DNA of 64,000 nucleotides from a virus. Positions 3,712 through 36,291 of the stretch are shown here, piece by piece. The DNA lies in the IMG/VR virus record IMGVR_UViG_3300018469_000001, positions 1 to 64,000 of that record; one strand, 5' to 3'. The notes beneath the pieces are model-generated. The model was not told where the DNA came from. It was given only the letters and a program-made list of their open reading frames with translations, and searched no databases. The position numbers and the translations under genes are program-made. How positions within the stretch are numbered: position 1 is the first letter of the stretch; the number at the start of each line of letters is the position of its first letter.

Positions 3712-4022
3712 GCCACCGTCTGCGACGGCCACGGGTGCGGGGGCAGGTCGGATCCGGATTCCCACCCTCCGGACATCAGCATCCGCGTCCGCGGCGGCTC
3801 AGACGGGTCCGGCACGGCGGCGGCGGCGAGCTGGGCGACCAGTTGCGACCACGGGCCGCCCGGGCGGCGGCCGCTGACTGTGGCGTACGCGGCGGCCCGG
3901 GCGATCACCAGCATCTCGTCCAGCTCGTGCCGCTCGTAGCCGTCCTTGAGGGCGGCGACGACCGGGTCGAGGTCATCGCCGGGATGCGGCGTTGGGTCCG
4001 GCCACGACAGTTCTCTCGCCAT
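3708..4022 (-). CDS. hypothetical protein (reverse-oriented small gene between tail and lysis genes)
   Basis: Only ORF with consistent G/C third-position bias covering the 3712-4105 gap. No clear RBS and no recognisable motif. Confidence 0.4.
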   Translation of the reverse strand: MARELSWPDPTPHPGDDLDPVVAALKDGYERHELDEMLVIARAAAYATVSGRRPGGPWSQLVAQLAAAAVPDPSEPPRTRMLMSGGWESGSDLPPHPWPSQTVA

Positions 4023-4105
4023 GCCGGCAGGCTACCGCGCCTGCCGGCCCGTTCCGGCCGTCCAGCAGCACGCTGGCGGCGTCATCCAGGAGGGAGGCCG
4101 CGCCG

Positions 4106-5173
4106 ATGAAGGTGCCCGGGATCGTGTACGTGCAGGGCCGCAACGACTACCCCGACCACGACGGCCGCAAGTACGGCATAGCGATCCACAACACCAGCAA
4201 CAACGCGTCCGACACCGGCGAGGCGTCGTATGCCAGCCGGCGCACCGACGGCGTCTCGTCGCACTTCTACGCCGATCGCGACTCGGTCACGCAGTCGATC
4301 GACACCGAGGACCGGGTCGGGCATGCCGGCTCGGCGGAGGGCAACGGCAACGCGATCGCGGTGGAGATCACCGGAGGGAACGCCAAGACCCGCGGCTGGT
4401 GGCTGGAAAACGTGGCCTGGGCGAAGCTCGGCTCCGTGCTCGCCTACGTGATCAAGACTGATCCGGACTTCCGCGGTTTCCAGGTCCGCCGCGCGTCGGT
4501 CGCGGAAATGCGAAGCAACCCCAAGGTCAAAGCCTTTTACAGCCACGACGACATGCGCCGGGCGTGGGGCGGCACCGACCACACCGACCCCGGCCCCAAC
4601 TTCCCCTGGGACCGGCTCTTCCAGGCGGTCAACGCCGCGCTGGGCGGCACCGAGACGGAGGACGACGACATGCTGAGCCCCGAAGCCCGCGCCGCTGTGC
4701 GCGCCGAATGCATCGCCGCGCTGGAGACCATCCGCCCCTATCAGGCCGGCGGGCCGCGGGCGAGGTTGAAGGACCCCGACCGGCATCCGCCCAAAGGATG
4801 GGGCGACCAGTCGCTGCGCATGGAGGGCGACTACGTGTTCGAGGGCGCGCTCAACACGGCGAAGGGGCTGGCCGAGGTGAAGCTCGGCCAGAAAGCGGTC
4901 CTCGCCGCGATCGACGGCATCGACCAGGACGGCGTGATGGCCCGGGTGGAGGAGCTGGCCGCCGTCGAGGCCGAACGCGACGCCACCACCCGGCTGGAGG
5001 AGGCCGCCCGGTGGGCTGAGCTGCTGGACCTGCTCGACCGGTCCGAAGGTGCGGCCGCCGACGAGGTTGTGCGGCTGATCCGGGTCAAGCTGGCCGCATG
5101 GGCCGGCGACGGCGGCCAGGGCGACACGCCCGAGACGACGGACGATGCAGCAACGCCGGGGACGGGATCTTAG
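4106..5173 (+). CDS. endolysin, N-acetylmuramoyl-L-alanine amidase (Amidase_2/PGRP type) with coiled-coil C-terminus
   Basis: ATG 4106 is preceded by aggagggagg. IAIHNTSN..SSHFYADRD..GHAGS..NAIAVEI..HTDPGPNFPWD fits the Zn-amidase_2 signature. The longer start at 3992 was rejected. Confidence 0.85.
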   Translation: MKVPGIVYVQGRNDYPDHDGRKYGIAIHNTSNNASDTGEASYASRRTDGVSSHFYADRDSVTQSIDTEDRVGHAGSAEGNGNAIAVEITGGNAKTRGWWLENVAWAKLGSVLAYVIKTDPDFRGFQVRRASVAEMRSNPKVKAFYSHDDMRRAWGGTDHTDPGPNFPWDRLFQAVNAALGGTETEDDDMLSPEARAAVRAECIAALETIRPYQAGGPRARLKDPDRHPPKGWGDQSLRMEGDYVFEGALNTAKGLAEVKLGQKAVLAAIDGIDQDGVMARVEELAAVEAERDATTRLEEAARWAELLDLLDRSEGAAADEVVRLIRVKLAAWAGDGGQGDTPETTDDAATPGTGS

Positions 5174-7721: not shown

Positions 7722-8123
7722 CTAGAAGGGAATCGGCAGGTCGCGGGGGCTGCTGGCGGCGATCAGCGCGAACGGGTCGACGTGGCCGGTGATCGACGGG
7801 GCGGGGGTGGCCGTTCGGGCGGCCGGCCGGGTCAGCGCGGCGGGCATGGTGTCGCCGCGGCGGAGTACCTCGTCGCGTAGGACGGCCAGCCCGTAGGGGA
7901 GCAGCCAGCCGCCGGTGACCTCGCGGGCCGGGCGGCCGGCGGGGCCGGCGACGCGGTCGCGTTGGAGGCGGGCCCAGCCGCGGCGTTCGAGCATGAGCAG
8001 CGTGCCGTGGCCGGCGACGGCGCCGTCGGTGTGGTCGGGGCCGCGGTCGATGCGGTGCTGGGGGCGGTCCAGGGCGGCGAGCAGCGTGGCGTACAGGCCG
8101 TCGCGGAGGGGTTTGGTGGTCAC
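7722..8123 (-). CDS. candidate winged-helix regulator (first gene of leftward operon; possible immunity-type repressor)
   Basis: GTG 8123 with RBS gggag upstream. GTLLMLERRGWARL resembles a wHTH wing. Sits at a divergent junction facing the rightward early operon. Confidence 0.45.
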   Translation of the reverse strand: MTTKPLRDGLYATLLAALDRPQHRIDRGPDHTDGAVAGHGTLLMLERRGWARLQRDRVAGPAGRPAREVTGGWLLPYGLAVLRDEVLRRGDTMPAALTRPAARTATPAPSITGHVDPFALIAASSPRDLPIPF

Positions 8124-8593: not shown

Positions 8594-9595
8594 ATGAAGA
8601 TCAGATATGAGGATTGGGCGCCCGGCCCAGAGGTCAAGATTGATATCCGGCGGGCTGAGGCCGTCTGCGCGCAGTACGCCGCGGACGGCTATGACCTGAC
8701 CCTGCGGCAGCTCTACTACCAGTTCGTCGCCCGCGGCTGGATACCGAACAATCAGCGCAGCTATAAGCGCCTCGGCGACATCGTCAACCGGGCACGGCTG
8801 GCCGGGATGCTCGATTGGGATTACATCGTCGACCGGACCCGCAGCTTGCAGGGCACCGCGCACTGGCGGACCCCGGGCGCGGTGATCGACTCCGCGGCGT
8901 ACTCGTACCGGCTCGATAAGTGGGCCGACCAGCCGCGCCGCGTCGAGGTGTGGGTGGAGAAAGAGGCCCTCGCCGGTGTCGTCCAGCGGGTCGCCGACGA
9001 GCACGACGTAGACTGGTTCTCGTGCCGCGGCTACGTGTCGCAGTCCGAACAGTGGGCGGCCGCCCGGCGGCTGCTGGGGTATCTCGAAAACGGCCAGGCC
9101 GTCACCATCCTGCACCTGGGCGACCACGACCCGTCCGGCATCGACATGACCCGCGACATCCGTGCCCGGCTGGAGAACTTCCTCACCCAGGACTGGTTGA
9201 ACGCCAACGTTGTCGATTTCGGCGGCGACAGCGTCAAGATCAGCGAAATCATGGGGCACATGCGCGACCGGGTCGGCGACGTGGACCCGATCGAGATACG
9301 TCGGATCGCTCTCAACTTCGACCAGGTCCAGCAGTACGACCCGCCACCCAACCCGACCAAGACGACCGACTCGCGGGCCGCCGGATACATCGAACGATTC
9401 GGCCACGAGTCGTGGGAACTCGACGCCCTACCGCCCGACGTCCTGGCGCAGCTCGTCCGTGACAACGTGGCGATGTTGCGCGACGACGACCGGTACGAGG
9501 CCGTCGAATCGCAGGAGGCCAGGGAACGTTCCCTGCTCCGGGCGGCCGCCGGCCGCTGGGACGACCTCGTCGCATTCCTCGGCGGGGAAGAGTGA
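8594..9595 (+). CDS. Topo VI-A / Spo11-like (mini-A type) WHD-Toprim protein
   Basis: LRQLYYQFV (catalytic-Tyr type motif) plus the Toprim-like LGDHDPSGIDM. ATG 8594 lies 6 nt after the upstream stop. Confidence 0.7.
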   Translation: MKIRYEDWAPGPEVKIDIRRAEAVCAQYAADGYDLTLRQLYYQFVARGWIPNNQRSYKRLGDIVNRARLAGMLDWDYIVDRTRSLQGTAHWRTPGAVIDSAAYSYRLDKWADQPRRVEVWVEKEALAGVVQRVADEHDVDWFSCRGYVSQSEQWAAARRLLGYLENGQAVTILHLGDHDPSGIDMTRDIRARLENFLTQDWLNANVVDFGGDSVKISEIMGHMRDRVGDVDPIEIRRIALNFDQVQQYDPPPNPTKTTDSRAAGYIERFGHESWELDALPPDVLAQLVRDNVAMLRDDDRYEAVESQEARERSLLRAAAGRWDDLVAFLGGEE

Positions 9596-15320: not shown

Positions 15321-15556
15321 CACCCGCCGAGCGTAAGGATCTCGCCGACGCTGTCGCTGCGATACGCGGCGGGGCCGGGCTGACCGCAGTGGAGGTCCAC
15401 TTGCAGGTCAGCCGGATCGGCCGGGCCGGCATCCTGGTGACCGCCGCCCACATCGAGGCACACCTCGGACATCCGCTGGCCGAGGCCAGCCACGGCGAGA
15501 TGCGAGGCGTGATCGCCGCGCTGAACGCCGTCAACCGGTCCGGGGTGTCGGCGTGA
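15317..15556 (+). CDS. hypothetical protein
   Basis: ATGA overlap with the recT stop. 79 aa. Confidence 0.5.
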   Translation: MTPAERKDLADAVAAIRGGAGLTAVEVHLQVSRIGRAGILVTAAHIEAHLGHPLAEASHGEMRGVIAALNAVNRSGVSA

Positions 15557-16872
15557 CCGCCGCGCTGGAGCTCCCGGCCGGGCTGACTGTCGACATGCTC
15601 GCCGCCGCCGCCCTGGTGGAGGCCGGGCCGGTCGACCCGCTGCTTGCGCCGTGCGCGGCGTGCGGTGAGCCGCCGCTCGTGCACGACGACGCACACACCT
15701 ACCACGCCGACGCGGTGTGGGCGCTCGCGCTGGCCGCGCAGGATGCCGCGGACCGGCCGGTGATGGACGACATCGTCGCCCGCCTCGACGCCGAGCACGT
15801 CCCGTCGGGGAAGACCGGCCCGTCGCCGTCCGATGCGGGCGCATGCCGGCGGGCACTGTGGTACCGGGACCGGCCACCCGCCGACTACACCCCACGCCAG
15901 ATCGACGAACGGCGGGCGGCGCTGGGCAACCTGATCCACCAGGCCGGCGCACACGCCCGCGCGGTGCTGTACCCGTGGCGCTGCTACGAGATGGTGGTTG
16001 CGATGCCCGGCCTGGACCGCGGCGGCCGGGTCGACGAATACGACCCGGTCCTCGGCGAGGTGATTGACTGGAAGTCGGCCGGCCAGGCCAAATGGCAGAT
16101 CATCGGCGACGACGGCCCCACCGACGACCAGTGGTCGCAGGGGCGCATCTACGGGTACGCGCTGGACATGGCCGGCTATCCGGTGCGCCGGATCCGGATC
16201 ATCCAAATCAACCGGGACACCGGCGCCGAAGAGAGCTTCGCCGAGGACTACGACCCCGCGGCCGGGCTGGCCGCGTTGGACGCGCTCACCGAAGCCGCCA
16301 CCATGATCGAGGCGGGGGTGGTGCCTCCCCGCGACGGCTACGGGCCCCGCGACTGGCGCTGCAAGTGGTGCCCCGCCATGGATCACTGCTGGTCGACTGT
16401 GCGGGCCGCCGAGGTGGGCCGCTCCCCCGAATCGCTGACCATCCTCGGCGAGCAGCCGGAGGACCCGTCGATCGCCTGGGCCGGCCGCACCGTGCTGACC
16501 CTGTCCGCCGACCGGCTCGCCCGGGAGAAGGCCGAGAAACGCGCAAAGTCGCTGTTGCAGGGCATCAAGCCGGGCACGTACGGCCAGGACAGCGACCAGC
16601 CCGTCGAGGTCTACCTCGACTGGTCCACCTCGTACGCGTACAAGGCCGCATATGAGCAGCTCCGCGCCCTGTACGAGCTGCCCGACGACCTGCGGCCGCC
16701 GCTGGCGGAGGTCGGCGAGGTGGAGAAGAAAAGCTCGAGCACGACCGCGGTGCGGCGGCCGCGGGCAGCCAAGCGGGCGGCCGCCCGCAAACCGCGAGGC
16801 AAGGCGCTGCCGGCCGCCGAGGCCGCCGGCGCCCAGCTCGCCGCCGAGATTGGGGAGGAGGCGCCGAGGTGA
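15553..16872 (+). CDS. PD-(D/E)xK exonuclease, Cas4/RecB-like (RecT partner)
   Basis: D..EVIDWK nuclease core, an N-terminal Cys plus a C-terminal CKWCPAMDHCW cluster (Cas4-like Fe-S ligands). Adjacent to recT. Confidence 0.75.
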   Translation: MTAALELPAGLTVDMLAAAALVEAGPVDPLLAPCAACGEPPLVHDDAHTYHADAVWALALAAQDAADRPVMDDIVARLDAEHVPSGKTGPSPSDAGACRRALWYRDRPPADYTPRQIDERRAALGNLIHQAGAHARAVLYPWRCYEMVVAMPGLDRGGRVDEYDPVLGEVIDWKSAGQAKWQIIGDDGPTDDQWSQGRIYGYALDMAGYPVRRIRIIQINRDTGAEESFAEDYDPAAGLAALDALTEAATMIEAGVVPPRDGYGPRDWRCKWCPAMDHCWSTVRAAEVGRSPESLTILGEQPEDPSIAWAGRTVLTLSADRLAREKAEKRAKSLLQGIKPGTYGQDSDQPVEVYLDWSTSYAYKAAYEQLRALYELPDDLRPPLAEVGEVEKKSSSTTAVRRPRAAKRAAARKPRGKALPAAEAAGAQLAAEIGEEAPR

Positions 16873-20716: not shown

Positions 20717-21871
20717 ATGAGCAGCGTCGCCCTGATGTGGGCCGCGACCGTGGCCCCGGTCGCCGACGTGCAGGAATACGCGATCCTCGTGCGGATGGCC
20801 GACGAGGCCGACGAGGCCGGCTGCGGCGTGCTGCTCGGCACCGCCACCATCGCCGCCGACGTCCTGGTCAACGCGAAGACCGTCCAACGGCGCCTCGACG
20901 CGATGCTCGAGCGCGGGCTGCTCGGACTCGGAGACCAACGCAAAGCCGCATACATCCGCGCCGACCGCCGACCCGTGGTCTACGACCTGCTGATCCCGGC
21001 GACCTGTTTCGCCGACCTGGCCCGCACCAACGCCCGCCGGGCCGCCAAGGATCTGCCGCCGCTCACCCCGGAAAACCGGCCGGTCCAGGCGCCACCACCT
21101 GAGGACAAGCGACGCACCCCCCGCAACGACATCGGCAAGCCGCGCGCCAAGAAGCTGCTCGAGGGCGGCGACGACGCACCCGCCGCCGCCGACGGGGTGA
21201 CTGCTAGTACCCCCGTCGGCGACCCGGACGAATCGGGCACGGGGGGACTGCTAGTCCAGCACGGGGGGACTGCTAGTCCAGCACGGGGGGACTACCAGTC
21301 ACCCGACCCTGGAACTACAGACCCGGGAAGTACTGACCCGGGTAAAACCTCTTCTCCGTCGCGAACGTCAGCTAGCGCGCACGCGAGCACCGCGACGGAG
21401 ACCGCGACAGCCCTAGGCGACTACGACCGGGAACACCTCGTCGCCGCCTGCCGTACCGCCGCCGCCGCCCGCGCCGGCGTGCCCGGCTGGACGGTCCGGC
21501 AGTGCGGCGAGGCCGCGCAGGCCGCGCTGGGCGCCGGCCACGACCCAGCCGACGTCGCCGAGCGGCTGGTCGAGCTGGCGCACGACAAGGCGTGCGCGTT
21601 CCCCACCATGCTGGCCGCCGACCTGGCCGTCGCCGCCGCCCGGGCGGTGCAAGCTGCGCGGCCGCCGGCCGCGCCGCCCTGGCCGACGGCCGGCGATGCT
21701 GCGCCCGAGGGTGCGGTCCGGTACCTGGACAACGACCGGCCACGCTGCCGCACCCACCCCGGCCAGCCGGCCGACAACTGCTCGGCGTGCCGCATCGACG
21801 CCCGGGTCGCCGCCGCCGAGGCCCGGATGGAGGCCGAACGGGCGCCAGACAGCACCGCCGACGCGGCGTAG
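20717..21871 (+). CDS. helix-turn-helix replication-initiator-like protein
   Basis: N-terminal wHTH typical of actinophage/plasmid initiators (ILVRMADEADEAG..TIAADVLVNAKTVQRRLDAMLERGLL). Contains an iteron array. C-terminal Cys pair. Confidence 0.6.
   Translation: MSSVALMWAATVAPVADVQEYAILVRMADEADEAGCGVLLGTATIAADVLVNAKTVQRRLDAMLERGLLGLGDQRKAAYIRADRRPVVYDLLIPATCFADLARTNARRAAKDLPPLTPENRPVQAPPPEDKRRTPRNDIGKPRAKKLLEGGDDAPAAADGVTASTPVGDPDESGTGGLLVQHGGTASPARGDYQSPDPGTTDPGSTDPGKTSSPSRTSASAHASTATETATALGDYDREHLVAACRTAAAARAGVPGWTVRQCGEAAQAALGAGHDPADVAERLVELAHDKACAFPTMLAADLAVAAARAVQAARPPAAPPWPTAGDAAPEGAVRYLDNDRPRCRTHPGQPADNCSACRIDARVAAAEARMEAERAPDSTADAA
21194..21300. repeat. iteron-like direct repeats inside the initiator gene (candidate origin)
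   Basis: The 22-bp unit ggggggactgctagtccagcac occurs twice in perfect tandem (21241-21284). Degenerate copies lie at 21194-21210 and 21285-21300. Confidence 0.55.
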
Positions 21872-21940
21872 CGTCAACCACTGCCGGCGTGGCCTGGACA
21901 CCCCGCCGGCAGCACCACCCCGAGACGAGAGGAACCCCCG

Positions 21941-23266
21941 ATGACCGCCACCATAGGCCGCCCAGAAGCCCCGTACGCCTCCAACGCCGCCGCCGCCCCC
22001 GACTCCACCCCCGACCGACGGCAGGCCGCCGTACGGGCGCTCGGCCCGGTCAACGCCCACGATCCGCGGCTGCCCGGACGTGTCGTGCTGCTACGAGCCG
22101 ACGCCGCCGCCCTGCCCCTGCCCGACGAGTCGGTCGACCTGGTCGTCACCTCGCCGCCGTACTGGGCGCAACGCTCGTACACCGACGGCGGGGCCCACTA
22201 CGCCGGGCAGCTCGGCGACGAGCCCAGCCCCGACGCCTACGTCGACCGGCTGGTCGCCTGCACCGCCGAGTGGGCGCGCGTCATCAAACCCGGCGGGTCG
22301 ATCTTCGTGAACCTCGGCGACAAGTACGCCGCCCGCGCCAACGCCGGCCCGTCCCGGGCTGTGTCAGGCCGCCAGGACCGGGCCGAGTGCCGGCCGCCGC
22401 ACCCGCCGGTGACCTCGTTCGCCCGCGACAAGTCGCTGCTCGGCCTGCCATGGCGGTACGCGCTGCGGTGCATCGGCGCCGGATCCGCGCTCGCCGACCC
22501 GTCCGTGGTCAAGCTGCTGCTCGCCGACGTCGCCGCCGGCGTCGTCCCGTTGGCCGTCGCCGAGGACCTGGTCGACACGCTCGCCGCCACCCCGGCAGAC
22601 GGGCCGCGGCTGATCCTGCGCGCCGAAATCCTCTGGTACAAGCGCAACGGGATGCCCGAGTCGGTCACCGACCGGGTACGCCGCGACCACGAACACGTCT
22701 TCCACCTCGTCAAGTCGGCCCGCCACTTCGCCGGCATCGACGCCGTCCGCGAGCCGCTGTCCAGCGCCTCACCCGAGCACGACGCCCGACGGCGAGGCCG
22801 CGGCGACGTCCGCCTGGACCTGGCCAACGGCGGCCGCACCTCCACCAGCAACCCGCTGGGCAAGCTGCCCGGATCCGTGTGGGACATCGTCACCCAACCT
22901 TTGACCCTGCCGCCCCATGTCGCGCACGCCCGGTGCTGCGCCGGCCAGCCGTCGCCGGGCTGCGGCGACGGTCTCGGCCACTACGCCGCGTTCCCGCTGG
23001 AGTTGCCCCGCCGGGCCATAGCCGGCTGGTGCCCGCCCGCCGGGGTCGTTCTGGACCCGTGCGGCGGCACCGGTACCGCCGCGCTGGTCGCCGCGGCGAC
23101 GGGCCGCACCGGCATCAGCGTCGACCGTTCCGCCGACTACACCGACGTCATCGCCCGCTGGCGCACCAACGATCCCGCCCAGGTCGCCCGCGCCTTGGCC
23201 GTACCGGTCCCGGCCGCGCCCGAGCTGACCGGCCAGGCCGACCTGCTCGCCGGGATTCTGCCGTGA
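21941..23266 (+). CDS. DNA methyltransferase (beta-class N4-C/N6-A, SPPY type)
   Basis: Motif IV VDLVVTSPPYW, then C-terminal motif I VLDPCGGTGTAA. RBS agagga. Confidence 0.85.
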   Translation: MTATIGRPEAPYASNAAAAPDSTPDRRQAAVRALGPVNAHDPRLPGRVVLLRADAAALPLPDESVDLVVTSPPYWAQRSYTDGGAHYAGQLGDEPSPDAYVDRLVACTAEWARVIKPGGSIFVNLGDKYAARANAGPSRAVSGRQDRAECRPPHPPVTSFARDKSLLGLPWRYALRCIGAGSALADPSVVKLLLADVAAGVVPLAVAEDLVDTLAATPADGPRLILRAEILWYKRNGMPESVTDRVRRDHEHVFHLVKSARHFAGIDAVREPLSSASPEHDARRRGRGDVRLDLANGGRTSTSNPLGKLPGSVWDIVTQPLTLPPHVAHARCCAGQPSPGCGDGLGHYAAFPLELPRRAIAGWCPPAGVVLDPCGGTGTAALVAAATGRTGISVDRSADYTDVIARWRTNDPAQVARALAVPVPAAPELTGQADLLAGILP

Positions 23267-25029
23267 CCGCCCGGCGTGCCCCCTCTCAGGCAACGTGGGA
23301 GCGCATCGACGCCGCCCGCCGCGAGCAGGCATCCCGGGCGCCCGGGGTGCCCCGCGACACCGGCTCGTGCGAGGGCCCGAACTGCTCGGCGAAGATCAGG
23401 TGGGCGAAGACGGTCGATGGTGGCCGCATGCCGGTCGACTTCACCCCGGACCCGGACGGCCGGCTGATCCGCGTCATGGTCGCTAAGGGCGACTGGCGGA
23501 TCCGTGTCCTGGCCGCCGGGGAACAGCCCGGCGGCGACGTGCACCGGTGGACGTCGCACTACGCCACCTGCCCCGACGCGGCCTGGTTCAAAGCCCGAGG
23601 CCGCGCCGCCACCCCGGCTGTCGGCCCACCTGCCCGCCGCCACCTGCAACCCGCCCCACCGCCGGCCGCGACGGCGCCAGACGTGCTGCTGGTCGTGGAC
23701 GGAAACTCGCTGGCCCACCGGGCGTGGCACGCCTACGAAAAGGCGGGCATGACCGCCCCGGACGGCCGGCCCATCCACGCCGTGTACGGATTCCTCGCGC
23801 TGCTGGCCGGCATTGTGGACAAGACCAGCCCCGACGGGCTGCTGGTCGGCTTCGACGACCGGGCCACGTCGGCCCGCCGCGACCGGTACCCCGAGTACAA
23901 GGCCGGCCGGGCGGAGAAGAACCCCGACCTTTACGCCCAGCTCGACGACATCGGCGCCATCCTCGACGCCATCGGAGTGTCCACAATGGTGCCGGCCGGG
24001 CTGGAAGCCGACGACGTGCTCGGCTCCGCCGCCGCCGCGGCCGAGCAGGCCGGCTGGCGGTGTGTGATCGCCACCAGCGACAAGGACGCGTTCGGGCTGA
24101 TCACCGACACGACCAGTGTGCTGCGGCTGGTGTCCGGGCTGGACAACGCCGAGCAGTACACCCCGGCCTGGCTGGCCGGCCGGTACGGCGGGGTCACCCC
24201 CGCCCAGTGGCTCGACTACGTCGCCCTGGTCGGCGACACCTCCGACAACCTGCCCGGCGTGCACGGCATCGGCCCGAAGACCGCCACGAAGCTGCTCAAC
24301 CACCTCGGATCCGTCGACGCGGCGCTCGCCGACCCGCCCGCCGTACGCGAGGCGGTCGGTACGGCCTACGCGGCCAAGCTGGCCGGCGACGCGGCCCGGG
24401 CGGTGCTGGCCCGCAACCGGGACATCATGGCCATCCGCCGGGACCTGCCCGTCGGCCTCGACGCCTGCCGGCCCACCGTCACCGCCGCGACGGTCGCCGC
24501 CGTACTCAACGGCCGGCACCTACCCAAGCTGGTCGACCGGGTCACTACTGCCCTGTGCCGGCCCGCCGCCCAGCCGACCCCGCCGCGCGGGCGCGGGCAC
24601 CTGGCCGCCGTACCCGACCTGCCGCCGCCGGTCGCCGCGGCCGTGGGGCAGTTGGCGCCGCGGCTGCTCTACCTCAACCCGCTGCCGGCCTGCCCGGACT
24701 GCGGCGAAACCTACGCGGCGTCGATGCCGCTGGCCGCAGCCAGCGGCGGCACCGTCGCCCTGACCGGTGAGCAGGTGTTGATCGCCATGGAACATCCGGC
24801 CGGTGACCTGCTCGCCGTGTCCGTCGGCGGCGGGTGGGCGGTGCGCCGCGTCACTGCCGGCGAGGCCCGGCTCCCGGCCGGCAACCGGCGCCGCGCCCAC
24901 CGGTGCGCCGACTACCCCGGCAAGTGCATGTTCTGCGGCGGCCCGGCCCGCCCCTACCTGTGCGGCCTACGCTGCAACGGGCACGCGCCCGTCGCCATCC
25001 GCCCCGCCGGCCCGGTATCGCCCGAGTGA
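23263..25029 (+). CDS. 5-3 exonuclease / flap endonuclease (PolA N-terminal type) with extra N- and C-terminal Cys modules
   Basis: LLVVDGNSLAHRAWHAY, EADDVLGS, ATSDKD and GDTSDNLPGVHGIGPKTA (H3TH). GTGA overlap with the methylase stop. Upstream part of track ORF 21502.. rejected. Confidence 0.8.
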   Translation: MTARRAPSQATWERIDAARREQASRAPGVPRDTGSCEGPNCSAKIRWAKTVDGGRMPVDFTPDPDGRLIRVMVAKGDWRIRVLAAGEQPGGDVHRWTSHYATCPDAAWFKARGRAATPAVGPPARRHLQPAPPPAATAPDVLLVVDGNSLAHRAWHAYEKAGMTAPDGRPIHAVYGFLALLAGIVDKTSPDGLLVGFDDRATSARRDRYPEYKAGRAEKNPDLYAQLDDIGAILDAIGVSTMVPAGLEADDVLGSAAAAAEQAGWRCVIATSDKDAFGLITDTTSVLRLVSGLDNAEQYTPAWLAGRYGGVTPAQWLDYVALVGDTSDNLPGVHGIGPKTATKLLNHLGSVDAALADPPAVREAVGTAYAAKLAGDAARAVLARNRDIMAIRRDLPVGLDACRPTVTAATVAAVLNGRHLPKLVDRVTTALCRPAAQPTPPRGRGHLAAVPDLPPPVAAAVGQLAPRLLYLNPLPACPDCGETYAASMPLAAASGGTVALTGEQVLIAMEHPAGDLLAVSVGGGWAVRRVTAGEARLPAGNRRRAHRCADYPGKCMFCGGPARPYLCGLRCNGHAPVAIRPAGPVSPE

Positions 25030-28430: not shown

Positions 28431-28664
28431 TTAGTCCTGTGAGGTGTCCGCGATCAACCCGTTGGCAGCCAACCCCCGCCGCATATCCCGCCACGCCTCC
28501 ATCGCGTCGCGGTACGGCTTACGCCACGCACCCTTGCGTGGCCGCCCCACATCATCGCGCCCCCGCTCGGCCACCGACCGCCCCAAACTCTCCTGCTTGT
28601 CGATGTACCGCCGGACCATATCGACGGACAACCCGACCAGCCGGGCCGCGTCCTCCATCGACAT
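28431..28664 (-). CDS. excisionase/MerR-like HTH DNA-binding protein
   Basis: MSMEDAARLVGLSVDMVRRYIDKQ is a typical N-terminal HTH. An alternative start lies at 28715. The rest of the 593-aa antisense track ORF was rejected. Confidence 0.6.
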   Translation of the reverse strand: MSMEDAARLVGLSVDMVRRYIDKQESLGRSVAERGRDDVGRPRKGAWRKPYRDAMEAWRDMRRGLAANGLIADTSQD

Positions 28665-28752
28665 CGTCGGGCGGTCCCGATCACCAGCACCGTCCACACG
28701 CCACCCCTGATCCATTCGGGAGTACCTAGCAAACCTCGGAAGCGACACGATC

Positions 28753-30279
28753 ATGCCAGTCAGCCGGAAACCCGACCGCCAAGACGCGGCCGCATCCTGC
28801 AAACCTGGCAAACCTTGCACGGATCGTGTCACACTGGCGGGCATGCTCACAGCCGGACCGGACCACCGGACCACCACCGCGGACCACCGGACCATCCCGG
28901 ACCGGACCGCCCCGGCGCGACCCCATGCACCGGACCGGTCCGGTCCGCCCCCACCGGTCCGCCCCACCGGACCGCCCCACCGGACCGCCCCACCGGACCG
29001 CGTTGAGGAACGGACCGGACCGCGCCGTCGCCCCGGACCGGTCCGCACACCCGGACCGGTCCGCCCCCTGCCCGCCGGCGGCGGACTGGCCCTGTTCGTG
29101 CTCATCGGCACCGGCGCCGCCATCTGCGTGACCTCCTTCCTGTTCTCCTTCGAGAACGTCAAGCACCTCGCCATCAGCATCGGCATCCACAAAGACATCG
29201 CCCCCTGGATCTCCCCCACCGTCGACCTGTCCGTCGTCGGGTTCATGGTCGCCGTCCAGTGGCTCGCCCTGGCCGGCGTCACCTCCGCCCAGCTCCTACC
29301 CGCCCGCCGCGCCCTGGTCTTCGCCGGCGCCGTGATGCTGCTGCTCAACAGCGCACCGTCGGCCATGAACGCCGTCGCCGACCAGGACGTCAAAGCCGCA
29401 GGCCGCGCCCTGGTCGAGGCCGCCGTGCCGTGCCTGCTCATCATCTGGACCCACGTTGGCCCGAAGGTCATCCGGCTGTTCATCGAGGTCCGCGAGCAGC
29501 ACCGCGCCGCCGTACACGCCGTCCAGGCCGCCGCTGAGCAGGCCGCCCACGCGGAACAGCTCGCCGCCGAGCTCGCCGACCGGGCCGCCGCCGACTGGGC
29601 CGACCGGGCCGCCGCGGCGGAACGCCAGGCCGCCGCGGACCGCGAAGACGCGCAGCGCCGCGAGCTGCTCGCCGCCGCCGCCCGCCGCGAGGAAGCCGAC
29701 CGGGCGGACCGGACCGCCCGCGAGCAGGCGGACCGGTCCGCCCGCATCGAGTTGGCCCGGGCCGAAGCCGCACGCGCCGAAGCGGACCGGACCGCCGCAG
29801 CCGCCGAGGCGGACCGGGCCCGCGCCGAGGCGGACCGGGCTGCCGCGGACCGGGCCGCCGCAGAGGCGGACCGGCTCGCCGCCGAAGCACTGCGGACCGA
29901 AGCCGCGGCCGCGGCCCGGCCCGCCACCCGCCGCACCGGAACGCGGACCGGACCGCCGCACCGGAACGCGGACCGGCCCGGTCCGGTCCGGCCGCCGGCG
30001 GACAACGTCGCGCCGATCGCCGACGGAGCCACCGGCGCCCGCGAAGCCCTCGACAAGATCCGCCGCGAGTATCCGCGGTTCTCGTCGTGGGCCGAGCTGC
30101 GCACCGCGATGGAGGGCAGGGCGCCGTCGCTCAACGACGTCGCCCGCACCACCGGCATGGGCAAGGCACGCATCAGCCGGGCGCTCCAGCACGCCGAAGA
30201 CCTGGGCGTCACCTACCGCGACCCCGGCGACGACGAAACCAACCCCGACAACACCCCGGCGGTAACTGTCAGCAACTAG
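28753..30279 (+). CDS. DUF2637-like membrane protein with ADR-repeat coiled coil and C-terminal HTH
   Basis: TM core LALFVLIGTGAAICVTSFLFSFENVKHLA..APWISPTVDLSVVGFMVAV is typical of DUF2637 in actinomycete conjugative elements. Start uncertain (28753 or 28843). The first ~100 codons coincide with the repeat array. Confidence 0.65.
   Translation: MPVSRKPDRQDAAASCKPGKPCTDRVTLAGMLTAGPDHRTTTADHRTIPDRTAPARPHAPDRSGPPPPVRPTGPPHRTAPPDRVEERTGPRRRPGPVRTPGPVRPLPAGGGLALFVLIGTGAAICVTSFLFSFENVKHLAISIGIHKDIAPWISPTVDLSVVGFMVAVQWLALAGVTSAQLLPARRALVFAGAVMLLLNSAPSAMNAVADQDVKAAGRALVEAAVPCLLIIWTHVGPKVIRLFIEVREQHRAAVHAVQAAAEQAAHAEQLAAELADRAAADWADRAAAAERQAAADREDAQRRELLAAAARREEADRADRTAREQADRSARIELARAEAARAEADRTAAAAEADRARAEADRAAADRAAAEADRLAAEALRTEAAAAARPATRRTGTRTGPPHRNADRPGPVRPPADNVAPIADGATGAREALDKIRREYPRFSSWAELRTAMEGRAPSLNDVARTTGMGKARISRALQHAEDLGVTYRDPGDDETNPDNTPAVTVSN
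28855..29062. repeat. dense GG(A/T)CC / CGG(A/T)CCG repeat array (candidate clt / translocase recognition sites)
   Basis: 20 GGACC/GGTCC pentamers in 208 bp, in both orientations, including CCGGACCGGTCCGG palindromes. A 13-bp unit gccccaccggacc occurs x3 (plus one inverted-core copy) at 28947-29000. Confidence 0.7.
29704..29991. repeat. second GCGGACCGG repeat cluster (also encodes the ADR protein repeat)
   Basis: About 10 copies of GCGGACCG(G/A) plus GGTCCGGTCCGG at 29980-29991. They coincide with the EADRA..ADR coiled-coil coding region. Confidence 0.5.
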
Positions 30280-30432: not shown

Positions 30433-31767
30433 ATGACGCTCAACACCACGCCGGCCACAGCACCACCGCCCGCACCCGCCCCACCAGCAGACAAGCCGGC
30501 CGCCGAGAAGAAGCCCAGCCGCAACCCGGTGGTCCACGTACGGCCGCTGGCCGCCGCAGCCGGCAACGCCGCCACCATCGGCGGCGCCACCGCCGTACAC
30601 GCCGGCGGACCGTGGGCGCTCGCCGCGATCGCAGCCGTCGCCGCCGTCGGCGCAGGCGCGGCGGCCCGCACCCGCGTGCGGTCCAACCGGGCCGCCTCCG
30701 GCTCAGCGTTCCGGACCACCCGGACCACCACCAGCGGCGGCCGCCGCACCGGCATGCCCCACCTCGGGCTCGGCCGCAGCACGTCGGGCCGGGCCGCATC
30801 AGCCGGCATCCCGGCCGGCCGCCGCGGCGGCACCGCGGCGACTGCCGGCCGACGGACCGGCGGCGCCCGGACCGGTCTCGGCCGCGGCGGATCCGGCCTG
30901 TCCGGTCTGCGTGGCCGCGCGCCCGGGCTCGGCGGCAAATCCGGCAGCGGCAAGCTCACCCCGGGCAAGGTCGCCCGCGCCCGCCGGCTGCTCGCCGACC
31001 GGAAAGCACGCGACGCCGCCCGGCGGGCCCGGCACAAGCTGCGCGGCGAAACCGGCCAGCGGCGCCAGGCCGCAGCCGACCAGGCCCGCGCCCGCCGCGA
31101 CGCCCAGCGGGAACACCGCCGCACCAACCCCGGCTGGTGGCGACGCTGGTGGCGGGCCCGGACCGGCCGCACCACCAAACCCGACGACCCGGCCACCACC
31201 ACGCCCGGCAACAAGACGGGCCGGGAACCGGCCGTCGGCGACACCGCCCGACGCGGCACCACCGACCCGGGCCGCCGCACACCGCGGCGCCCCGCCCAGC
31301 CACCCGCAGGCCACCGGCCCGCAGGTTCCCGCCCCGCCACACCCACCGGCCCGGCCATCCCGGCCGCCGCCGCATCAGGAGGACCCGTGTCCGCAGGACC
31401 GTCGGTGATGCGGGCGCTGCTCGCCCTCGCCGAAGAGATGAAAGCCGTTGCCATCAAGCACGAACGACCCGAAGGCGTCATGCAGCTCATCCAGGAATAC
31501 GAAATCCTGCCCGAGGTGCTCGACGTGCTCACCGAAGCGTGGACGGCTTGGCACACCCGCGCCACCGACCCGCACGACGGTGACCCGCTCAACCCGGCCG
31601 TGATGGATCTGCTCGCCGAAATCGCCAAAACCCAGCGGGTCGCCGCGCACGCCGCAGCCGAAGTCGCCCCGCTGGCCCGCCGGCTGGAGGCCGCCCGCAT
31701 CGAGGCGCTACGCGACCGCCGCAACCGGATGTGGGACCTGCGCGCAAACGACGGGTACGCGGCATGA
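30433..31767 (+). CDS. Spd-like hypothetical protein (Arg/Gly-rich centre, helical C-terminus)
   Basis: ATG 30433 with RBS aggaagg. One TM-like segment (PWALAAIAAVAAVGAGAAA). Lies immediately upstream of, and coupled to, the translocase. Confidence 0.6.
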   Translation: MTLNTTPATAPPPAPAPPADKPAAEKKPSRNPVVHVRPLAAAAGNAATIGGATAVHAGGPWALAAIAAVAAVGAGAAARTRVRSNRAASGSAFRTTRTTTSGGRRTGMPHLGLGRSTSGRAASAGIPAGRRGGTAATAGRRTGGARTGLGRGGSGLSGLRGRAPGLGGKSGSGKLTPGKVARARRLLADRKARDAARRARHKLRGETGQRRQAAADQARARRDAQREHRRTNPGWWRRWWRARTGRTTKPDDPATTTPGNKTGREPAVGDTARRGTTDPGRRTPRRPAQPPAGHRPAGSRPATPTGPAIPAAAASGGPVSAGPSVMRALLALAEEMKAVAIKHERPEGVMQLIQEYEILPEVLDVLTEAWTAWHTRATDPHDGDPLNPAVMDLLAEIAKTQRVAAHAAAEVAPLARRLEAARIEALRDRRNRMWDLRANDGYAA

Positions 31768-34079
31768 GCGGGCGGCGCCGGCCCCGGGTGGACCTGTCGT
31801 TCGGCCCCGGACATGGGCCGGTCTCCGGGGTACTCAACGCGGCCGGCGCTGCCCTGGGCGCCACCATGCTGCTAGACCTCACCGGCGGGTCAGGGGTGTA
31901 CGGGTTCGCCGCGGCGTTCCTGCTCGCCTGCGCAGGCGCGGGCGTGGCCCTCTGGTACGACCAGCCCGACCGGGTCGTGGCCTACCGGGCCGGCTGCTGG
32001 CTGGCCGCCGGCGTCTGGTCGGCGTGGACCCTGTCCGGATTCCAGGGCATCCCGCTGCCGGCCACCGCCATGCGGTTGGGCGGCTGGTTCTGGTCGCCGG
32101 GCACCCCGTGGGCGGCACGCCCGGCCTACGGCCTGGCCGCCGGCGCCGCCGTCGCCGCCGCGGTCGGCTGGGCCATCGAGCGGGCCGAAAAACGCGCCGC
32201 CGCCGAGGCCGAACGACTGGCCAAACAGACCGAAGCCCAGCGGCTCGCCGCCGAAGAAGCTGCCCTGGCCGCCCGCACCCCCGCCAACGAGCAGGAAGCC
32301 ATCGCCTTCACGGTGGGCCCGGTGCTGCGCCGCATCACCCGCAAGGCGATCCAGATCCTCAACGTCGAGCTGTGGGAGCCCAACTACGGGCACACCCTGG
32401 ACTGCGAGCTGCCCGACGACGGCACCACACTCGGCGACATCAAGCCGTACGAAGAGGCGATCGCGTCCGCGCTGGACCTGGGCGAGGGTTGCGGGGTAGA
32501 GATCGTCCGGCCGGAAGGGCTCGGCCGCCGCGCCGTCCACATCAAGATCACGACGGTGTCGGCGCTCGGCCAGGACATTCCGCTGCCCGCCGACTACAGC
32601 CCGGAGACCATCGAAAACCCGGTCGCGTTGGGGGTCGAAACCGACCGCAAGGTCGCCGAGGTGCCGTTGCGATTCGAGTCCGCCGTCCTGGTCGGGCAGA
32701 CCGACAGCGGCAAGTCCAACCAGCTCAACGTCCTGGTCGCCGGCCTGGCCCGGTGCACCGACGTGCTGCTGGCCGGCATCGACCTGTCCGGCCAGGGCCG
32801 ATTCCTGCGCCCCTGGCAGCGTCCCTACTACGAGGGACGCGCCCCCGCCCCCGTGTTTGCCCTGACCGCGGTCAACGACGTCCAGGCCGCCCTGCTGGTC
32901 CAGGCGCTCATCCAGATCGTCGACGGCCGCACCGCCGACTACGCCCCGCTGATGCACGCCGAGAAAGAAGACAAGATCGTCCCCCGGCCGACGTTGCCGC
33001 AAATCGTGCTGATCATCGATGAGTTCGGCAAGCTGTCCGAGCGGGTCAAAGAGATGGTCATCACCTTGACCGACACCGGCCGCGGCGCCGCCGTCCGCGT
33101 CGTGTCCTGCGCGCTGGAGGCCACCGCCGGCTACATCCCCCGAAAGATCATCACGCAGTCGCGGGTCCGTATCGGCATGCGCGTCCAGGACGAAACCCAG
33201 CTCCAATATTTGTTCGACACCACCTGGCGCCGCGGCCGATTCGACCCGGCGTCGATGCCCTGGAAGGGCAGCGGCCTCTACACCGAGGGCACCCGATTCC
33301 CCGACCGCTTCAAGGGCTACCGGGTCAACCCCGAGCAGGTCGACCAGATCGCTGTCGCGGTCGGCCCCCTGCGCCCCCCGCTCGACGAGCCGTCACTGCG
33401 CCGCGGCGACGACGTCACCCTCACCGTCAAGGGCGACGACGGGCTGCGCACCGAACGCGACTTCGTCGGCGTGCTTACCGCCAACGAAGCCATGACCTTC
33501 CCGCTGATCTTCCCCGACGGCGCCGGCCCCTCAGCCGCCGCCGCCACCAGCACCGGAGAGGACCCCGCGATGTCCCAACAGCAGCAGCCTGCCAGCACCG
33601 GCCCGGCCGCCGACCTCGGCGGCGCCGTACGCGACCTGAACAGCTCGCTCGAGCGCGCCCGCAAGGCCGCCGACGCAGCCGAGAAGGCCGTCGCCGGCGG
33701 CGACGGCGACCAGGGCGACGACCAGCAGCCCGGCCCCGCCGACGACCCCGAGCTGCCAAGCCTCAACGCCCTGTGGGCGTCCCCGGCCGAAGAACCAGTG
33801 CGCCCCAAGGACCAGGCCCCGGCGGCCGCGCCGCGCCGTCCGGCCGTACCGCCGCGCCGCCGCGTCCAGCAGCTCATCGCCGCGGCCGCCGACACCGGTA
33901 TCGGGCCCGGCGACATCCACGCCGCGCTCAAGGCCGAGGGCTACCCGACCTCGCTGACCACGGTCAACAACTGGCTGCGGGAGTGGGCCGCGCAGGGCAT
34001 CGTCGTCCAGCCCGCGGGGGAGCGCACCCCGTGGTTTCCCGGCCCGCAGATGGGCGAGCACGGGCAGGCAGCGGCATGA
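31764..34079 (+). CDS. traB: TraB/TraSA-type FtsK/SpoIIIE-family dsDNA translocase
   Basis: N-terminal hydrophobic helices, Walker A VGQTDSGKSN, Walker B IVLIIDEFGK, and a C-terminal wHTH-like tail (IHAALKAEGYPTSLTTVNNWLREWAAQGIV). ATGA overlap with the upstream stop. Confidence 0.85.
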   Translation: MSGRRRPRVDLSFGPGHGPVSGVLNAAGAALGATMLLDLTGGSGVYGFAAAFLLACAGAGVALWYDQPDRVVAYRAGCWLAAGVWSAWTLSGFQGIPLPATAMRLGGWFWSPGTPWAARPAYGLAAGAAVAAAVGWAIERAEKRAAAEAERLAKQTEAQRLAAEEAALAARTPANEQEAIAFTVGPVLRRITRKAIQILNVELWEPNYGHTLDCELPDDGTTLGDIKPYEEAIASALDLGEGCGVEIVRPEGLGRRAVHIKITTVSALGQDIPLPADYSPETIENPVALGVETDRKVAEVPLRFESAVLVGQTDSGKSNQLNVLVAGLARCTDVLLAGIDLSGQGRFLRPWQRPYYEGRAPAPVFALTAVNDVQAALLVQALIQIVDGRTADYAPLMHAEKEDKIVPRPTLPQIVLIIDEFGKLSERVKEMVITLTDTGRGAAVRVVSCALEATAGYIPRKIITQSRVRIGMRVQDETQLQYLFDTTWRRGRFDPASMPWKGSGLYTEGTRFPDRFKGYRVNPEQVDQIAVAVGPLRPPLDEPSLRRGDDVTLTVKGDDGLRTERDFVGVLTANEAMTFPLIFPDGAGPSAAAATSTGEDPAMSQQQQPASTGPAADLGGAVRDLNSSLERARKAADAAEKAVAGGDGDQGDDQQPGPADDPELPSLNALWASPAEEPVRPKDQAPAAAPRRPAVPPRRRVQQLIAAAADTGIGPGDIHAALKAEGYPTSLTTVNNWLREWAAQGIVVQPAGERTPWFPGPQMGEHGQAAA

Positions 34080-35038
34080 CCGGCCGCATCATCGGCATGA
34101 GCGGGCCCATCATCGGCACCCGGATACGCCGGCCCGGCGACCCGCCGCCGCAGACGGTCGACTGGCTGCCTCACCCCGACCCCGACCCCGCCGACGTCAC
34201 GCCGGCTCGCGCCACCGGCAAACCACGCACCAAAGGCCGGCCTATGCCGGAGATGCCCGCCGGCGGCTACCTGCCGTACCGGCTGTTCGGGAAGCTCCCC
34301 GCCGAGGCCGCCTGGTGGCGGCGCCTGACCGCCTGGGCGACCGGCAGCGCGCACCACCTGCTCTACCTGGGCATCACCTGCCGCAACGGGTTCGTGCGTT
34401 GGGTGGAGCATTCCGACATCCAGGACTGGGCCGGCGACGTGGCCCGGGCCGAACGCGACGACTCGATCCGGTGGCGCACCCTCTACGACGCCGTCGAAGA
34501 CGAGCGCGGCCGCATCGTCCTGGTCCTCGACGACCGGCAGCCCGACGGCGCCCGCCCCGCCCGCCCCGACGAGCTGCTCGACCCGCAGCCTCACCCGTGG
34601 CGTCTCAACGGCGTCGACGTGCTCGCCCACCGCATCCACCCGGCCGGCCTGCCCGGCCGCCGCATGGGCACCGTCATCGAAGGGGCCAAGACCGGCGAGC
34701 GCCGCATGGTCCAGGCCGAGGCCCCGGTCCACAACCACGAGCACAACGAAGGCAACGCCGGCGCCGTACGCCGGCGGTACCGCATCCTGCCCACCCACGT
34801 AGCGCTGTGGCGCCGCCAGGCCGCCCACCTGGCCCTGCTGTGGCTCACCCTGGCCGGGCTGCTCGGCTGGGCATCCTACGACGGCCGCGGACTGTCGGGC
34901 ATCCTCGCCGCGGTCTCCTCCGCCATCCCGGTCGCCGCCGTGCTGATCCTGCTCGCCCAGCTCGGCCGGCAAACCGTCCGCGGCCGCGTCCACCTGAAAC
35001 TGCAACGGGCACGCCGCAGGGGAGGCGCCCGCCGATGA
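34076..35038 (+). CDS. hypothetical protein with C-terminal TM helices (Spd-like)
   Basis: ATGA overlap with the traB stop. C-terminal LALLWLTLAGLLGW and AIPVAAVLILLAQL. Confidence 0.55.
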   Translation: MTGRIIGMSGPIIGTRIRRPGDPPPQTVDWLPHPDPDPADVTPARATGKPRTKGRPMPEMPAGGYLPYRLFGKLPAEAAWWRRLTAWATGSAHHLLYLGITCRNGFVRWVEHSDIQDWAGDVARAERDDSIRWRTLYDAVEDERGRIVLVLDDRQPDGARPARPDELLDPQPHPWRLNGVDVLAHRIHPAGLPGRRMGTVIEGAKTGERRMVQAEAPVHNHEHNEGNAGAVRRRYRILPTHVALWRRQAAHLALLWLTLAGLLGWASYDGRGLSGILAAVSSAIPVAAVLILLAQLGRQTVRGRVHLKLQRARRRGGARR

Positions 35039-35835: not shown

Positions 35836-36291
35836 ATGACCGACGACCGTTACGACGAGCTGGGCCCGCTGGCCTTCGCCCCCGACGACACCATCGAGAT
35901 CGAGCAGCCCCCGGTCGACGTGCCCCGCGACACCTGCGGACTGCGCCCCGGATCGCGCCGCGTGGCCAGCAGCAGCGGCGACCGCGACTACCGCTACATC
36001 GGCGTCGTACGCCTCGACGGCCGGCCGATCGCCGAGTGCGGCCACGAGCACCGCAACCGCGACTGGAACGGCGCCACCGACTGCGCCCGCGCCGTCCTCG
36101 CCGGAGCAGCCAACCCCAACGTCGCCGCCGCGGCCGCCGGAACGATCTGCGACCGCTGGATGCCGCTGACCCATGCCACCGGCCACACCTACAGCAAGAC
36201 CACCATCGACGCGGCCAAGACCGCCGCCCACACCGACGCGGCCACCTACCGCGCCGCCGTCGACACCGTCCGCACCGCCATCGCCCGCTGA
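35836..36291 (+). CDS. hypothetical protein
   Basis: RBS gaggga. 151 aa. Confidence 0.55.
   Translation: MTDDRYDELGPLAFAPDDTIEIEQPPVDVPRDTCGLRPGSRRVASSSGDRDYRYIGVVRLDGRPIAECGHEHRNRDWNGATDCARAVLAGAANPNVAAAAAGTICDRWMPLTHATGHTYSKTTIDAAKTAAHTDAATYRAAVDTVRTAIAR

Follow-up and report, generated by a model that had tools for sequence, protein, structure and literature searches.

Why should 20 copies of one pentamer, in both orientations, be packed into 208 bp at the start of a membrane-protein gene? The question is raised by IMG/VR virus record IMGVR_UViG_3300018469_000001, of which positions 1 to 64,000 (one strand, 5' to 3') form the stretch analysed here, hereafter the window. In it, two clusters of the pentamer GGWCC (W is A or T) lie within a single long open reading frame (ORF) at 28753–30279, whose product resembles DUF2637 membrane proteins and which is followed, one gene further on, by a gene for a TraB-like DNA translocase. 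TraB-type conjugation moves double-stranded DNA (dsDNA) and needs only the pump and a clt site. To our knowledge, clt sites are known only for a handful of small Streptomyces plasmids. An earlier reading of these letters, made without database searches (the sequence-only reading), had proposed the first cluster as the clt locus at which this TraB loads, a proposal that we tentatively favour.

Recounting gave exactly the 20 GG(A/T)CC cores previously reported at 28855–29062 (array 1, annotated without strand). Fifteen read GGACC and five GGTCC within these 208 bp, and they are arranged as singles, direct doublets and inverted doublets. The CGG(A/T)CCG context, which had been ascribed to nearly all of them, holds for 16 of the 20, and the extended motif of the array is CGGWCCG / ACCGGACC. 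The palindromes noted before were also located, with one perfect CCGGACCGGTCCGG at 28930 and CGGACCGGTCCG at 28931, 29034 and 29052. Tandem Repeats Finder recovered the repeated 13-bp unit (CCGGACCGCCCCA) as a sub-array at 28940–29001, again without strand, with 4.7 copies at period 13 and 95% matches. Outside the two clusters the window contains 3.5 GGWCC per kb, from which 0.73 would be expected in 208 bp; the Poisson probability of at least 20 cores is 4e-22, or 2.5e-17 once multiplied by 64,000 start positions. In a strand-symmetric 7-mer scan of the 64 kb, array 1 ranked first among short-repeat clusters and array 2 second, and the scan detected no other clt-like array in the window, including downstream of traB. 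CGGWCCG occurs 72 times in the window, compared with 56 predicted window-wide by dinucleotide shuffles; 33 copies belong to the two clusters, and the remaining 39 are at or below background. The enrichment check suggested for this motif yields an excess over the window background and the codon-based null in the clusters and no enrichment elsewhere. Array 1 is confirmed as a real and very dense cluster.

Array 2 (29636–29991, without strand) lies about 0.85 kb downstream of array 1 and contains 17 CGGWCCG, mostly GCGGACCGG, in sequence coding for a coiled coil and a linker. The second cluster seen earlier at 29704–29991 is thus real, with 16 GGWCC cores at 29706–29989, about ten being GCGGACCGG. 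It had been considered ambiguous since it also encodes an ADR peptide repeat, but codon choice was found to be skewed towards the motif, and array 2 is not merely a by-product of that repeat.

The 15 forward cores of array 1 are spread evenly over the three codon phases (5/5/5), and the reverse cores also occur in all three. A synonymous-codon null was simulated 2000 times, in which the amino acids were kept and codons were sampled according to the usage of the element. Array 1 contains 20 cores against 5.6 expected (3.5 times) and array 2 contains 17 against 4.3–4.8 expected, numbers reached in 0 of 2000 simulations in either case, whereas the transmembrane (TM) core encoded between the arrays shows no excess (2 against 3.0 expected). 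With the same null, a 4- to 15-fold motif excess was obtained for the arrays of three homologous loci (L001, L002 and L005) and of Thermobifida phage P1312. Rare codons are heavily used in the arrays, as seen for GCA in L001 and for GGT (33, compared with 2 for GGC) in P1312. Since recent duplication also keeps codons, the codon test by itself is no proof of selection. Both orientations and palindromes are present in every array, features that slippage alone would not produce. A check of related elements for repeat conservation independent of reading frame showed that the arrays are kept, with a changed motif and with peptides that are not conserved. Together with the use of all three frames and the excess over the codon null, this leaves the earlier suggestion that selection acts on the DNA and not on the peptide well supported.

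The six frames are almost stop-free across the arrays in four loci, so the open frame from 28753 is no evidence of coding. A frame plot showed no third-position GC signal over 28753–29050 and a strong signal from about 29053. Alignment of the four loci revealed the invariant pattern TG.CA...TG...GCATG, in which a promoter-like block ends in GCATG. The ATG, at 28843 in the window, shares its frame with the TM core in all four loci (the window, L001, L002 and L005), an arrangement with a chance probability of about 1–4%. Since this in-frame GCATG is conserved in four loci, we took ATG 28843, and not 28753, as the likely start codon, which is perhaps leaderless. The same alignment defines a conserved CAnnnT hexamer (CACACT) that is separated from ATG 28843 by a 7-nt spacer (28830–28845, forward strand) and is a probable -10 element of the membrane-protein gene. 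As a scan for E. coli-type promoters and terminators returned nothing, the promoter is one that we infer from the alignment. The gene call on a near-identical public contig begins at a GTG equivalent to window position 29098 (393 aa, P0001). Array 1 is probably inside the coding sequence, where it would encode the first 75 or so residues; it is probably not upstream non-coding DNA, as the conserved in-frame ATG precedes it. The start thus probably differs from the alternative start at 28753 considered earlier, and what the homologous loci keep is an array and not the encoded peptide.

Translation, the frame plot and an AlphaFold2 model together define a probable full ORF of 478 aa (28843–30279, forward strand). 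Its predicted product consists, in order, of a disordered Arg/Pro/Thr/Gly-rich tail, a four-helix TM core, a coiled coil modelled mostly with confidence as a helix of about 170 residues, a disordered linker and a C-terminal helix-turn-helix (HTH)-like domain. A homologue search with the full-length protein was swamped by low-complexity words and returned 4 proteins only; the TM core was then used as query. A profile of six cores (A4), covering a DUF2637 or 'SpdA'-type TM core at 29074–29520 (forward strand), matched 951 proteins, the best of which are DUF2637 (PF10935) or 'SpdA protein' at about 40% identity and E about 1e-33. The best matches come from actinomycetes, and the two that were inspected occur with GntR, TraB, RepSA and an integrase or recombinase in classical actinomycete integrative and conjugative elements (AICEs). 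Pfam and NCBIfam gave no match for the window protein, including PF10935, which falls below cut-off in relatives (5.8e-4 in one of five, 5.5e-3 in the L004 homologue and 6.7e-4 in L025); for the neighbouring ORFs, too, direct scans with these two libraries yielded next to nothing. The name 'DUF2637 TM core' given by the sequence-only reading consequently stands at superfamily level, by profile search, but not as a direct Pfam match. No match was obtained when GTDB genomes were scanned with the membrane protein or with TraB, or when IMG/VR was scanned with the membrane protein. The C-terminal domain (30016–30222, forward strand; ...SLNDVARTTGMGKARISRALQHAE...) is modelled as four short helices with a predicted local distance difference test score (pLDDT) of 81–88. 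Foldseek against the PDB gave no significant match for it (E > 1); its top non-significant neighbours are mostly HTH or winged HTH (wHTH) DNA-binding domains, the FtsK gamma domain among them, and HTH_36 and LacI appear as weak Pfam matches in relatives.

In L001, L002 and L005, as in the window, the array follows directly after the conserved promoter-like block and ATG. The motif is TGCACCGG in L001, GTCCGCGGAC in L002 and GAACCGGWCCGG (GAACCGGWCC) in L005, and the encoded peptides do not align. Four elements (the window, L001, L002 and L025) carry two clusters of their own motif about 0.8–1.4 kb apart, the second cluster of L001 being located in the 3' end of a different gene. L001 also has a 13-nt inverted repeat, CTTGCCCCGGTGC...GCACCGGGGCAAG, which contains the L001 motif and lies in intergenic DNA upstream of the conserved ATG (7918–7957).

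Linkage of such arrays to TraB was seen when IMG/VR was scanned for two GGACCGGTCC within 30 bp. Of the 26 loci obtained, four reach 16 or more cores per 300 bp, each of them adjoining a TraB-like gene; the other 22 yielded no TraB match. Two of the dense loci are P1312-like phages and the others are L025 and L037. In phage P1312 (L013), traB is directly followed by a gene for an N-terminal HTH, about 300 array-encoded residues and a C-terminal multi-helix membrane domain, and the 0.9-kb array of this gene contains 45 GGWCC cores compared with 14 expected by codon usage; the P1312 genome paper does not mention the array. Separate from it, operator-like GTGACA/TGTCAC-type repeats and palindromes are found between the traB stop and the next gene (L013 8560–8720). 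In L025, one gene combines a DUF2637-like core with an array-encoded linker and a C-terminal HTH; a remote TraB-like ORF comes next, and a second array lies between the two genes. In L037, 16 cores occupy apparently non-coding DNA directly after the traB stop, the canonical clt position, and in plasmid pSQ10, 12 CGTTAC/GTAACG repeats in both orientations likewise directly follow traB. The distance between array and traB is 2.7 kb with one gene between in the window, and 0.1–1 kb in P1312, L025 and L037. Comparable arrays were absent from the classical AICEs L009 and L010, from phage Hiyaa and from phiZL12. On the linear Streptomyces plasmid pDSM40587 (L007, NZ_CP083591.1), CCGGCCAC occurs six times together with GCTCCGGAC-type repeats at the 5' end of an annotated DUF2637 gene (8700–9030), some of these short repeats preceding the annotated start.

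The number of repeat units differs between near-identical sequences. Over 21.2 kb, compared within the 18–40 kb part of the window, the window differs from the 101-kb public contig (L003, ENA ERZ27251491 k141_5529450) by one single-nucleotide polymorphism (position 36251, G in the window and T in L003) and by two whole-unit repeat indels, indicating that the window is a separate, near-identical sequence or assembly. The window has one extra 22-bp unit at about 21237, and a 13-bp unit of array 1 (about 28959–28971) is absent from the public contig, in which the equivalent of ATG 28843 is consequently out of frame with the TM core. In the L004 homologue, about 25 residues precede the first TM helix, and an HTH but no array is encoded. 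The frame-breaking 13-bp change and the L004 gene fit a DNA-level element with a dispensable encoded tail, and the indel could act as a phase switch. Unit number is either variable or assembly-dependent, an assembly artefact being the alternative. Between P1312 and the P1312-like phages L021 and L023, whose TraB proteins are 99% identical, tblastn coordinates suggest array lengths differing by about 9 and about 69 bp, multiples of 3, unlike the 13 bp of the window.

The translocase gene itself lies at 31764–34079 on the forward strand (771 aa; phrog_31069 at 9e-81), and its called start agrees with the 2.7-kb gap reported before. By alignment, the protein has N-terminal hydrophobic segments, a Walker A motif (GQTDSGKS), an IIDE motif and a C-terminal wHTH-like tail. 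In tblastn searches it is 31–36% identical, with E down to 2e-52, to FtsK/TraB proteins of Streptomyces, Kitasatospora, Nocardiopsis and Frankia plasmids, and a similar identity links it to FtsK-like genes in phages of Streptomyces, in phiZL12 and in Thermobifida phage P1312. Pfam FtsK_SpoIIIE reached 18.1 bits, under its 24-bit cut-off. The PHROG match, tblastn and the alignment thus bear out the predicted TraB-like gene with a wHTH-like tail. The gene after traB overlaps its stop codon (ATGA overlap), and a 21-bp repeat (2.2 copies, 34072–34118) spans the traB stop and the start of that ORF, the canonical clt position, although it looks coding-like.

With a probability of roughly 0.45, we consider the arrays to be a clt-like loading site of the TraB/Spd module. 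The GGWCC clusters would be cis-acting protein-binding half-sites, working at the DNA level and belonging to a dsDNA transfer module (TraB plus Spd-like proteins) on a roughly 100-kb actinobacterial mobile element that combines phage and plasmid features. With many short motif copies in both orientations, the site would attract the hexameric TraB translocase and promote its assembly via the C-terminal wHTH domains, a step in which the HTH of the membrane protein may assist, after which the pump would deliver the element DNA to an adjacent cell or compartment of the hypha. In favour of TraB as the reader, a TraB element needs a clt site, the window holds no other array, and the arrays of L037 and pSQ10 adjoin traB outside any such membrane-protein gene. 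Precedents are available, since TraB proteins bind clustered short clt repeats through the wHTH (PMC4447253, PMC3583192), the clt of pWTY27 reaches into traA (PMC3583192) and SpdA2 binds palindromes inside its own coding region (PMC4170104).

Several points weigh against a clt role. The array is 2.7 kb upstream of traB with one gene between rather than adjacent to it, and there are about 20 and 17 cores compared with 4–9 repeats in described clt loci (PMC3583192). The C-terminal segments of TraB look unrelated among GGWCC-core elements, and an R..R pattern in the membrane-protein HTH of these elements, seen by eye, points to the alternative reader. Recent duplication can keep codons identical in the absence of selection, and the region is probably translated, so the tail may act at the protein level. 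The DNA inspected was 64 kb out of a contig of about 101 kb. Finally, that a protein binds the arrays, which protein this is and what the arrays do in transfer are all things that we infer. What stands of the clt proposal is a real, DNA-constrained and TraB-linked array with loading as its best-supported mechanism; the identity of the reader is shared between two candidates, the TraB wHTH and the membrane protein's HTH, which are equally well placed.

It is possible, if rather unlikely, that the reader is the HTH of the DUF2637 membrane protein and not TraB. That protein would then bind within its own gene and hold the DNA at the membrane, serving stability or segregation or passing DNA on to the TraB pore as an adaptor, analogous to SpdA2–sps. 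In the window, L002, P1312 and L025 the arrays are inside genes for a DUF2637-like TM core plus HTH, and this holds even in P1312, where the domain order is permuted and the HTH is N-terminal. One of the two L001 arrays is in such a gene, but the other is in another gene; the L005 array is in a homologue whose HTH region falls outside the sequence, since the contig ends before the C-terminus. Conversely, the L004 homologue has the HTH and no array, and the arrays of L037 and pSQ10 come directly after traB, outside such a gene. Four short helices are modelled with confidence in the C-terminal domain, for which HTH or wHTH domains predominate among the top structural neighbours, but these Foldseek matches are non-significant (E > 1). 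An Spd protein that binds palindromes in its own coding sequence provides a precedent (PMC4170104). In the putative recognition helix, GGWCC-core elements share R..R (KARISRAL, TAREIRAAL and SRASRLL) and elements with other motifs have KRRILAAL, KQIMEAL and KQKIKDAL, a comparison made by eye on six sequences; moreover, P0004 and L001 have the same motif type and different helices. When motifs were compared with the recognition helices of the TraB wHTH, the membrane HTH and the small HTH across 4–7 elements, only the small HTH looked unlikely.

Alternatively, the repeats might have no DNA-binding role and be a by-product of slippage-made, low-complexity coding for disordered Arg/Pro/Thr/Gly-rich tails and linkers, which we regard as improbable. 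In keeping with this, four loci have a conserved in-frame ATG ahead of the arrays, the model predicts disorder for tail and linker, most of the P1312 repeats read in frame as V[D/V]RSG, and the array lengths of 99%-identical P1312-like phages differ by multiples of 3 according to tblastn coordinates. Unit-length polymorphism shows that slippage occurs, and duplication ancestry alone can beat the codon null. However, slippage gives direct repeats and not the inverted copies and palindromes of every array, the cores are in all three frames, and about 1 kb away there is a second cluster, in L001 within another gene, of the same element-specific motif. The L037 array is in apparently non-coding DNA, a 13-bp indel breaks the frame, L004 manages without the tail, and dense arrays co-occur with TraB genes. 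Still less probable is an extended operator of the spd/tra operon of the Kil-Kor type, bound by the small divergent HTH protein or another repressor, with clusters that might loop. The array does begin 10 bp past the probable start of the first gene in the string encoding the membrane protein, a 444-aa protein and TraB, a conserved small HTH gene lies divergently opposite, and in pSVH1 the TraR protein binds to repeats that precede the spd operon (PMC4447253). Yet separate promoter-proximal repeats (GCAAACCT, three copies; CTTCCA, seven copies, in L005) are better placed, the recognition helices in the small HTH proteins show no correspondence with the motif (those of L001 and L005 are alike, yet the motifs differ), 20 plus 17 sites across 1.1 kb far exceed known operators, and the arrays of L037, P1312 and L001 are not at promoters. 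Least credible is a function as iterons of a replication origin or as a centromere for partition. Both kinds of site typically consist of dense short repeats in mixed orientation, and iterons of actinomycete plasmids can lie near or inside genes (PMC3583192), but no Rep-, ParA- or ParB-like gene was found near the arrays or among the ORFs scanned, polymorphic 22-bp repeats at 21237–21342 upstream of a polymerase/exonuclease-like ORF are a better iteron candidate, and the arrays follow the tra/spd module in every related element.

Two further candidates were rejected. For an RNA element, Rfam gave no match and the mixed orientation argues against it. A restriction-site decoy, considered since GGWCC, GTGCAC and CCGCGG are palindromic, was dropped as GTGCAC accounts for only a minority of the L001 copies and the arrays go with traB.

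The genes around the locus complete the picture of the module. A small divergent HTH gene (28431–28664, reverse strand; 77 aa, MerR/HTH_17-like), mapped from the gene call on the near-identical contig, has sub-threshold Pfam matches to HTH_29, MerR and HTH_17, and homologues in the same position in L001, L002 and L005. The divergent promoter region contains three GCAAACCT repeats on the forward strand (28729–36, 28799–806 and 28808–15, together spanning 28729–28815), which are distinct from the GGWCC array; in the equivalent place, L005 has seven copies of CTTCCA(A/C) at 1012–1075. Both sets of promoter-proximal repeats are probably operators. Between the membrane-protein gene and traB, a called ORF of 444 aa (30433–31767, forward strand) is highly rich in Arg, Gly and Thr in its middle part and has no Pfam, NCBIfam or PHROG match. 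Large unannotated ORFs occupy its position in L001 (877 aa) and L002 (574 aa).

Elsewhere in the window, phage-flavoured ORFs encode an Amidase_2 endolysin-like protein (3950–5173), a polymerase/exonuclease-like protein of 1175 aa with PHROG matches of this kind (21502–25029) and an exonuclease-like protein (15337–16872), and the gene call on the public contig includes DNA methyltransferase and NlpC/P60 genes. Capsid, portal and terminase genes were not found among the ORFs scanned, and most other large ORFs are without a family match. Just upstream of the 1175-aa ORF, at 21237–21342, a 22-bp tandem repeat (GCACGGGGGGACTGCTAGTCCA, 2.9 copies) is accompanied by a 15-bp repeat (2.5 copies); the 22-bp repeats are a possible iteron or operator.

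The signature described here, two dense, bi-orientational, element-specific arrays in the gene of an HTH-bearing DUF2637 membrane protein beside traB, is seen again in sequenced phages and in large actinobacterial elements that are mostly unannotated. Should the arrays be loading sites, transfer origins would become predictable from sequence, one could test directly the code by which TraB or a new adaptor protein recognises its sites, and the question would arise of whether some actinophages spread DNA by a conjugation-like route. This last idea comes from tailed phages such as Thermobifida phage P1312, in which the module is also found, composed of TraB, an HTH-membrane protein and a 0.9-kb GGWCC array. 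More speculative, and in our estimate unlikely, are a 'membrane centromere' in which the HTH docks the DNA at the TraB pore, phase-variable expression through the 13-bp unit, and a clt-dependent spread of phages between hyphal compartments without virions.

Four known systems invite comparison. The KOPS and SRS sequences are 8-bp motifs read by the C-terminal wHTH (gamma domain) of the hexameric dsDNA pumps FtsK and SpoIIIE. Short motifs for the wHTH of a hexameric dsDNA pump would thus be a common feature, but KOPS and SRS are dispersed over the chromosome with an orientation bias that directs translocation, whereas the present motifs form two local clusters of mixed orientation. In the sps/SpdA2 system of pIJ101 (PMC4170104), the binding sites are inside a spread-module gene whose product is DNA-binding; here, palindromes are found inside a gene whose product has a predicted HTH-like domain. 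The sps sites match a short peptide repeat, and their position relative to the start codon varies between plasmids. They differ in being a 12-bp palindrome conserved in many plasmids at 2–3 copies, compared with tens of copies of an element-specific motif here, and SpdA2 (117–163 aa) is not a membrane protein, and sps affects stability and not transfer. SpdB2/DUF2637 proteins ('SpdA' of AICEs) share with the window protein profile-level homology in the TM core, four predicted TM helices, a coiled coil and the traB neighbourhood, and SpdB2 binds dsDNA non-specifically and interacts with TraB (PMC4447253). The window protein is without a Pfam match and twice as long, with a repeat-encoded tail, a long coiled coil and a C-terminal HTH, and the classical AICE loci L009 and L010 have no such arrays.

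The closest likeness proposed here is with the clt loci of TraB-type elements, which also combine clustered short (5–9 bp), element-specific repeats with an FtsK-like TraB protein that has a C-terminal wHTH. In both, the repeats vary between elements and overlap with coding sequence is possible, as in pWTY27, and pSQ10 and L037 have arrays of the same architecture directly after traB. The pSVH1 recognition sequence is reportedly GACCCGGA, and its resemblance to GACCGGA is a lead only. Known clt loci have 4–9 repeats in 50–175 bp, whereas about 20 plus 17 cores form two clusters here, in both orientations and with palindromes, inside a DUF2637/Spd-like gene 2.7 kb upstream of traB, on an element of about 100 kb with phage-like genes. 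Compared with described clt loci, the candidate is therefore much larger, bi-orientational, divided into two clusters, located in an Spd-like gene and polymorphic in unit number, and it occurs in large phage-like elements and in a sequenced phage.

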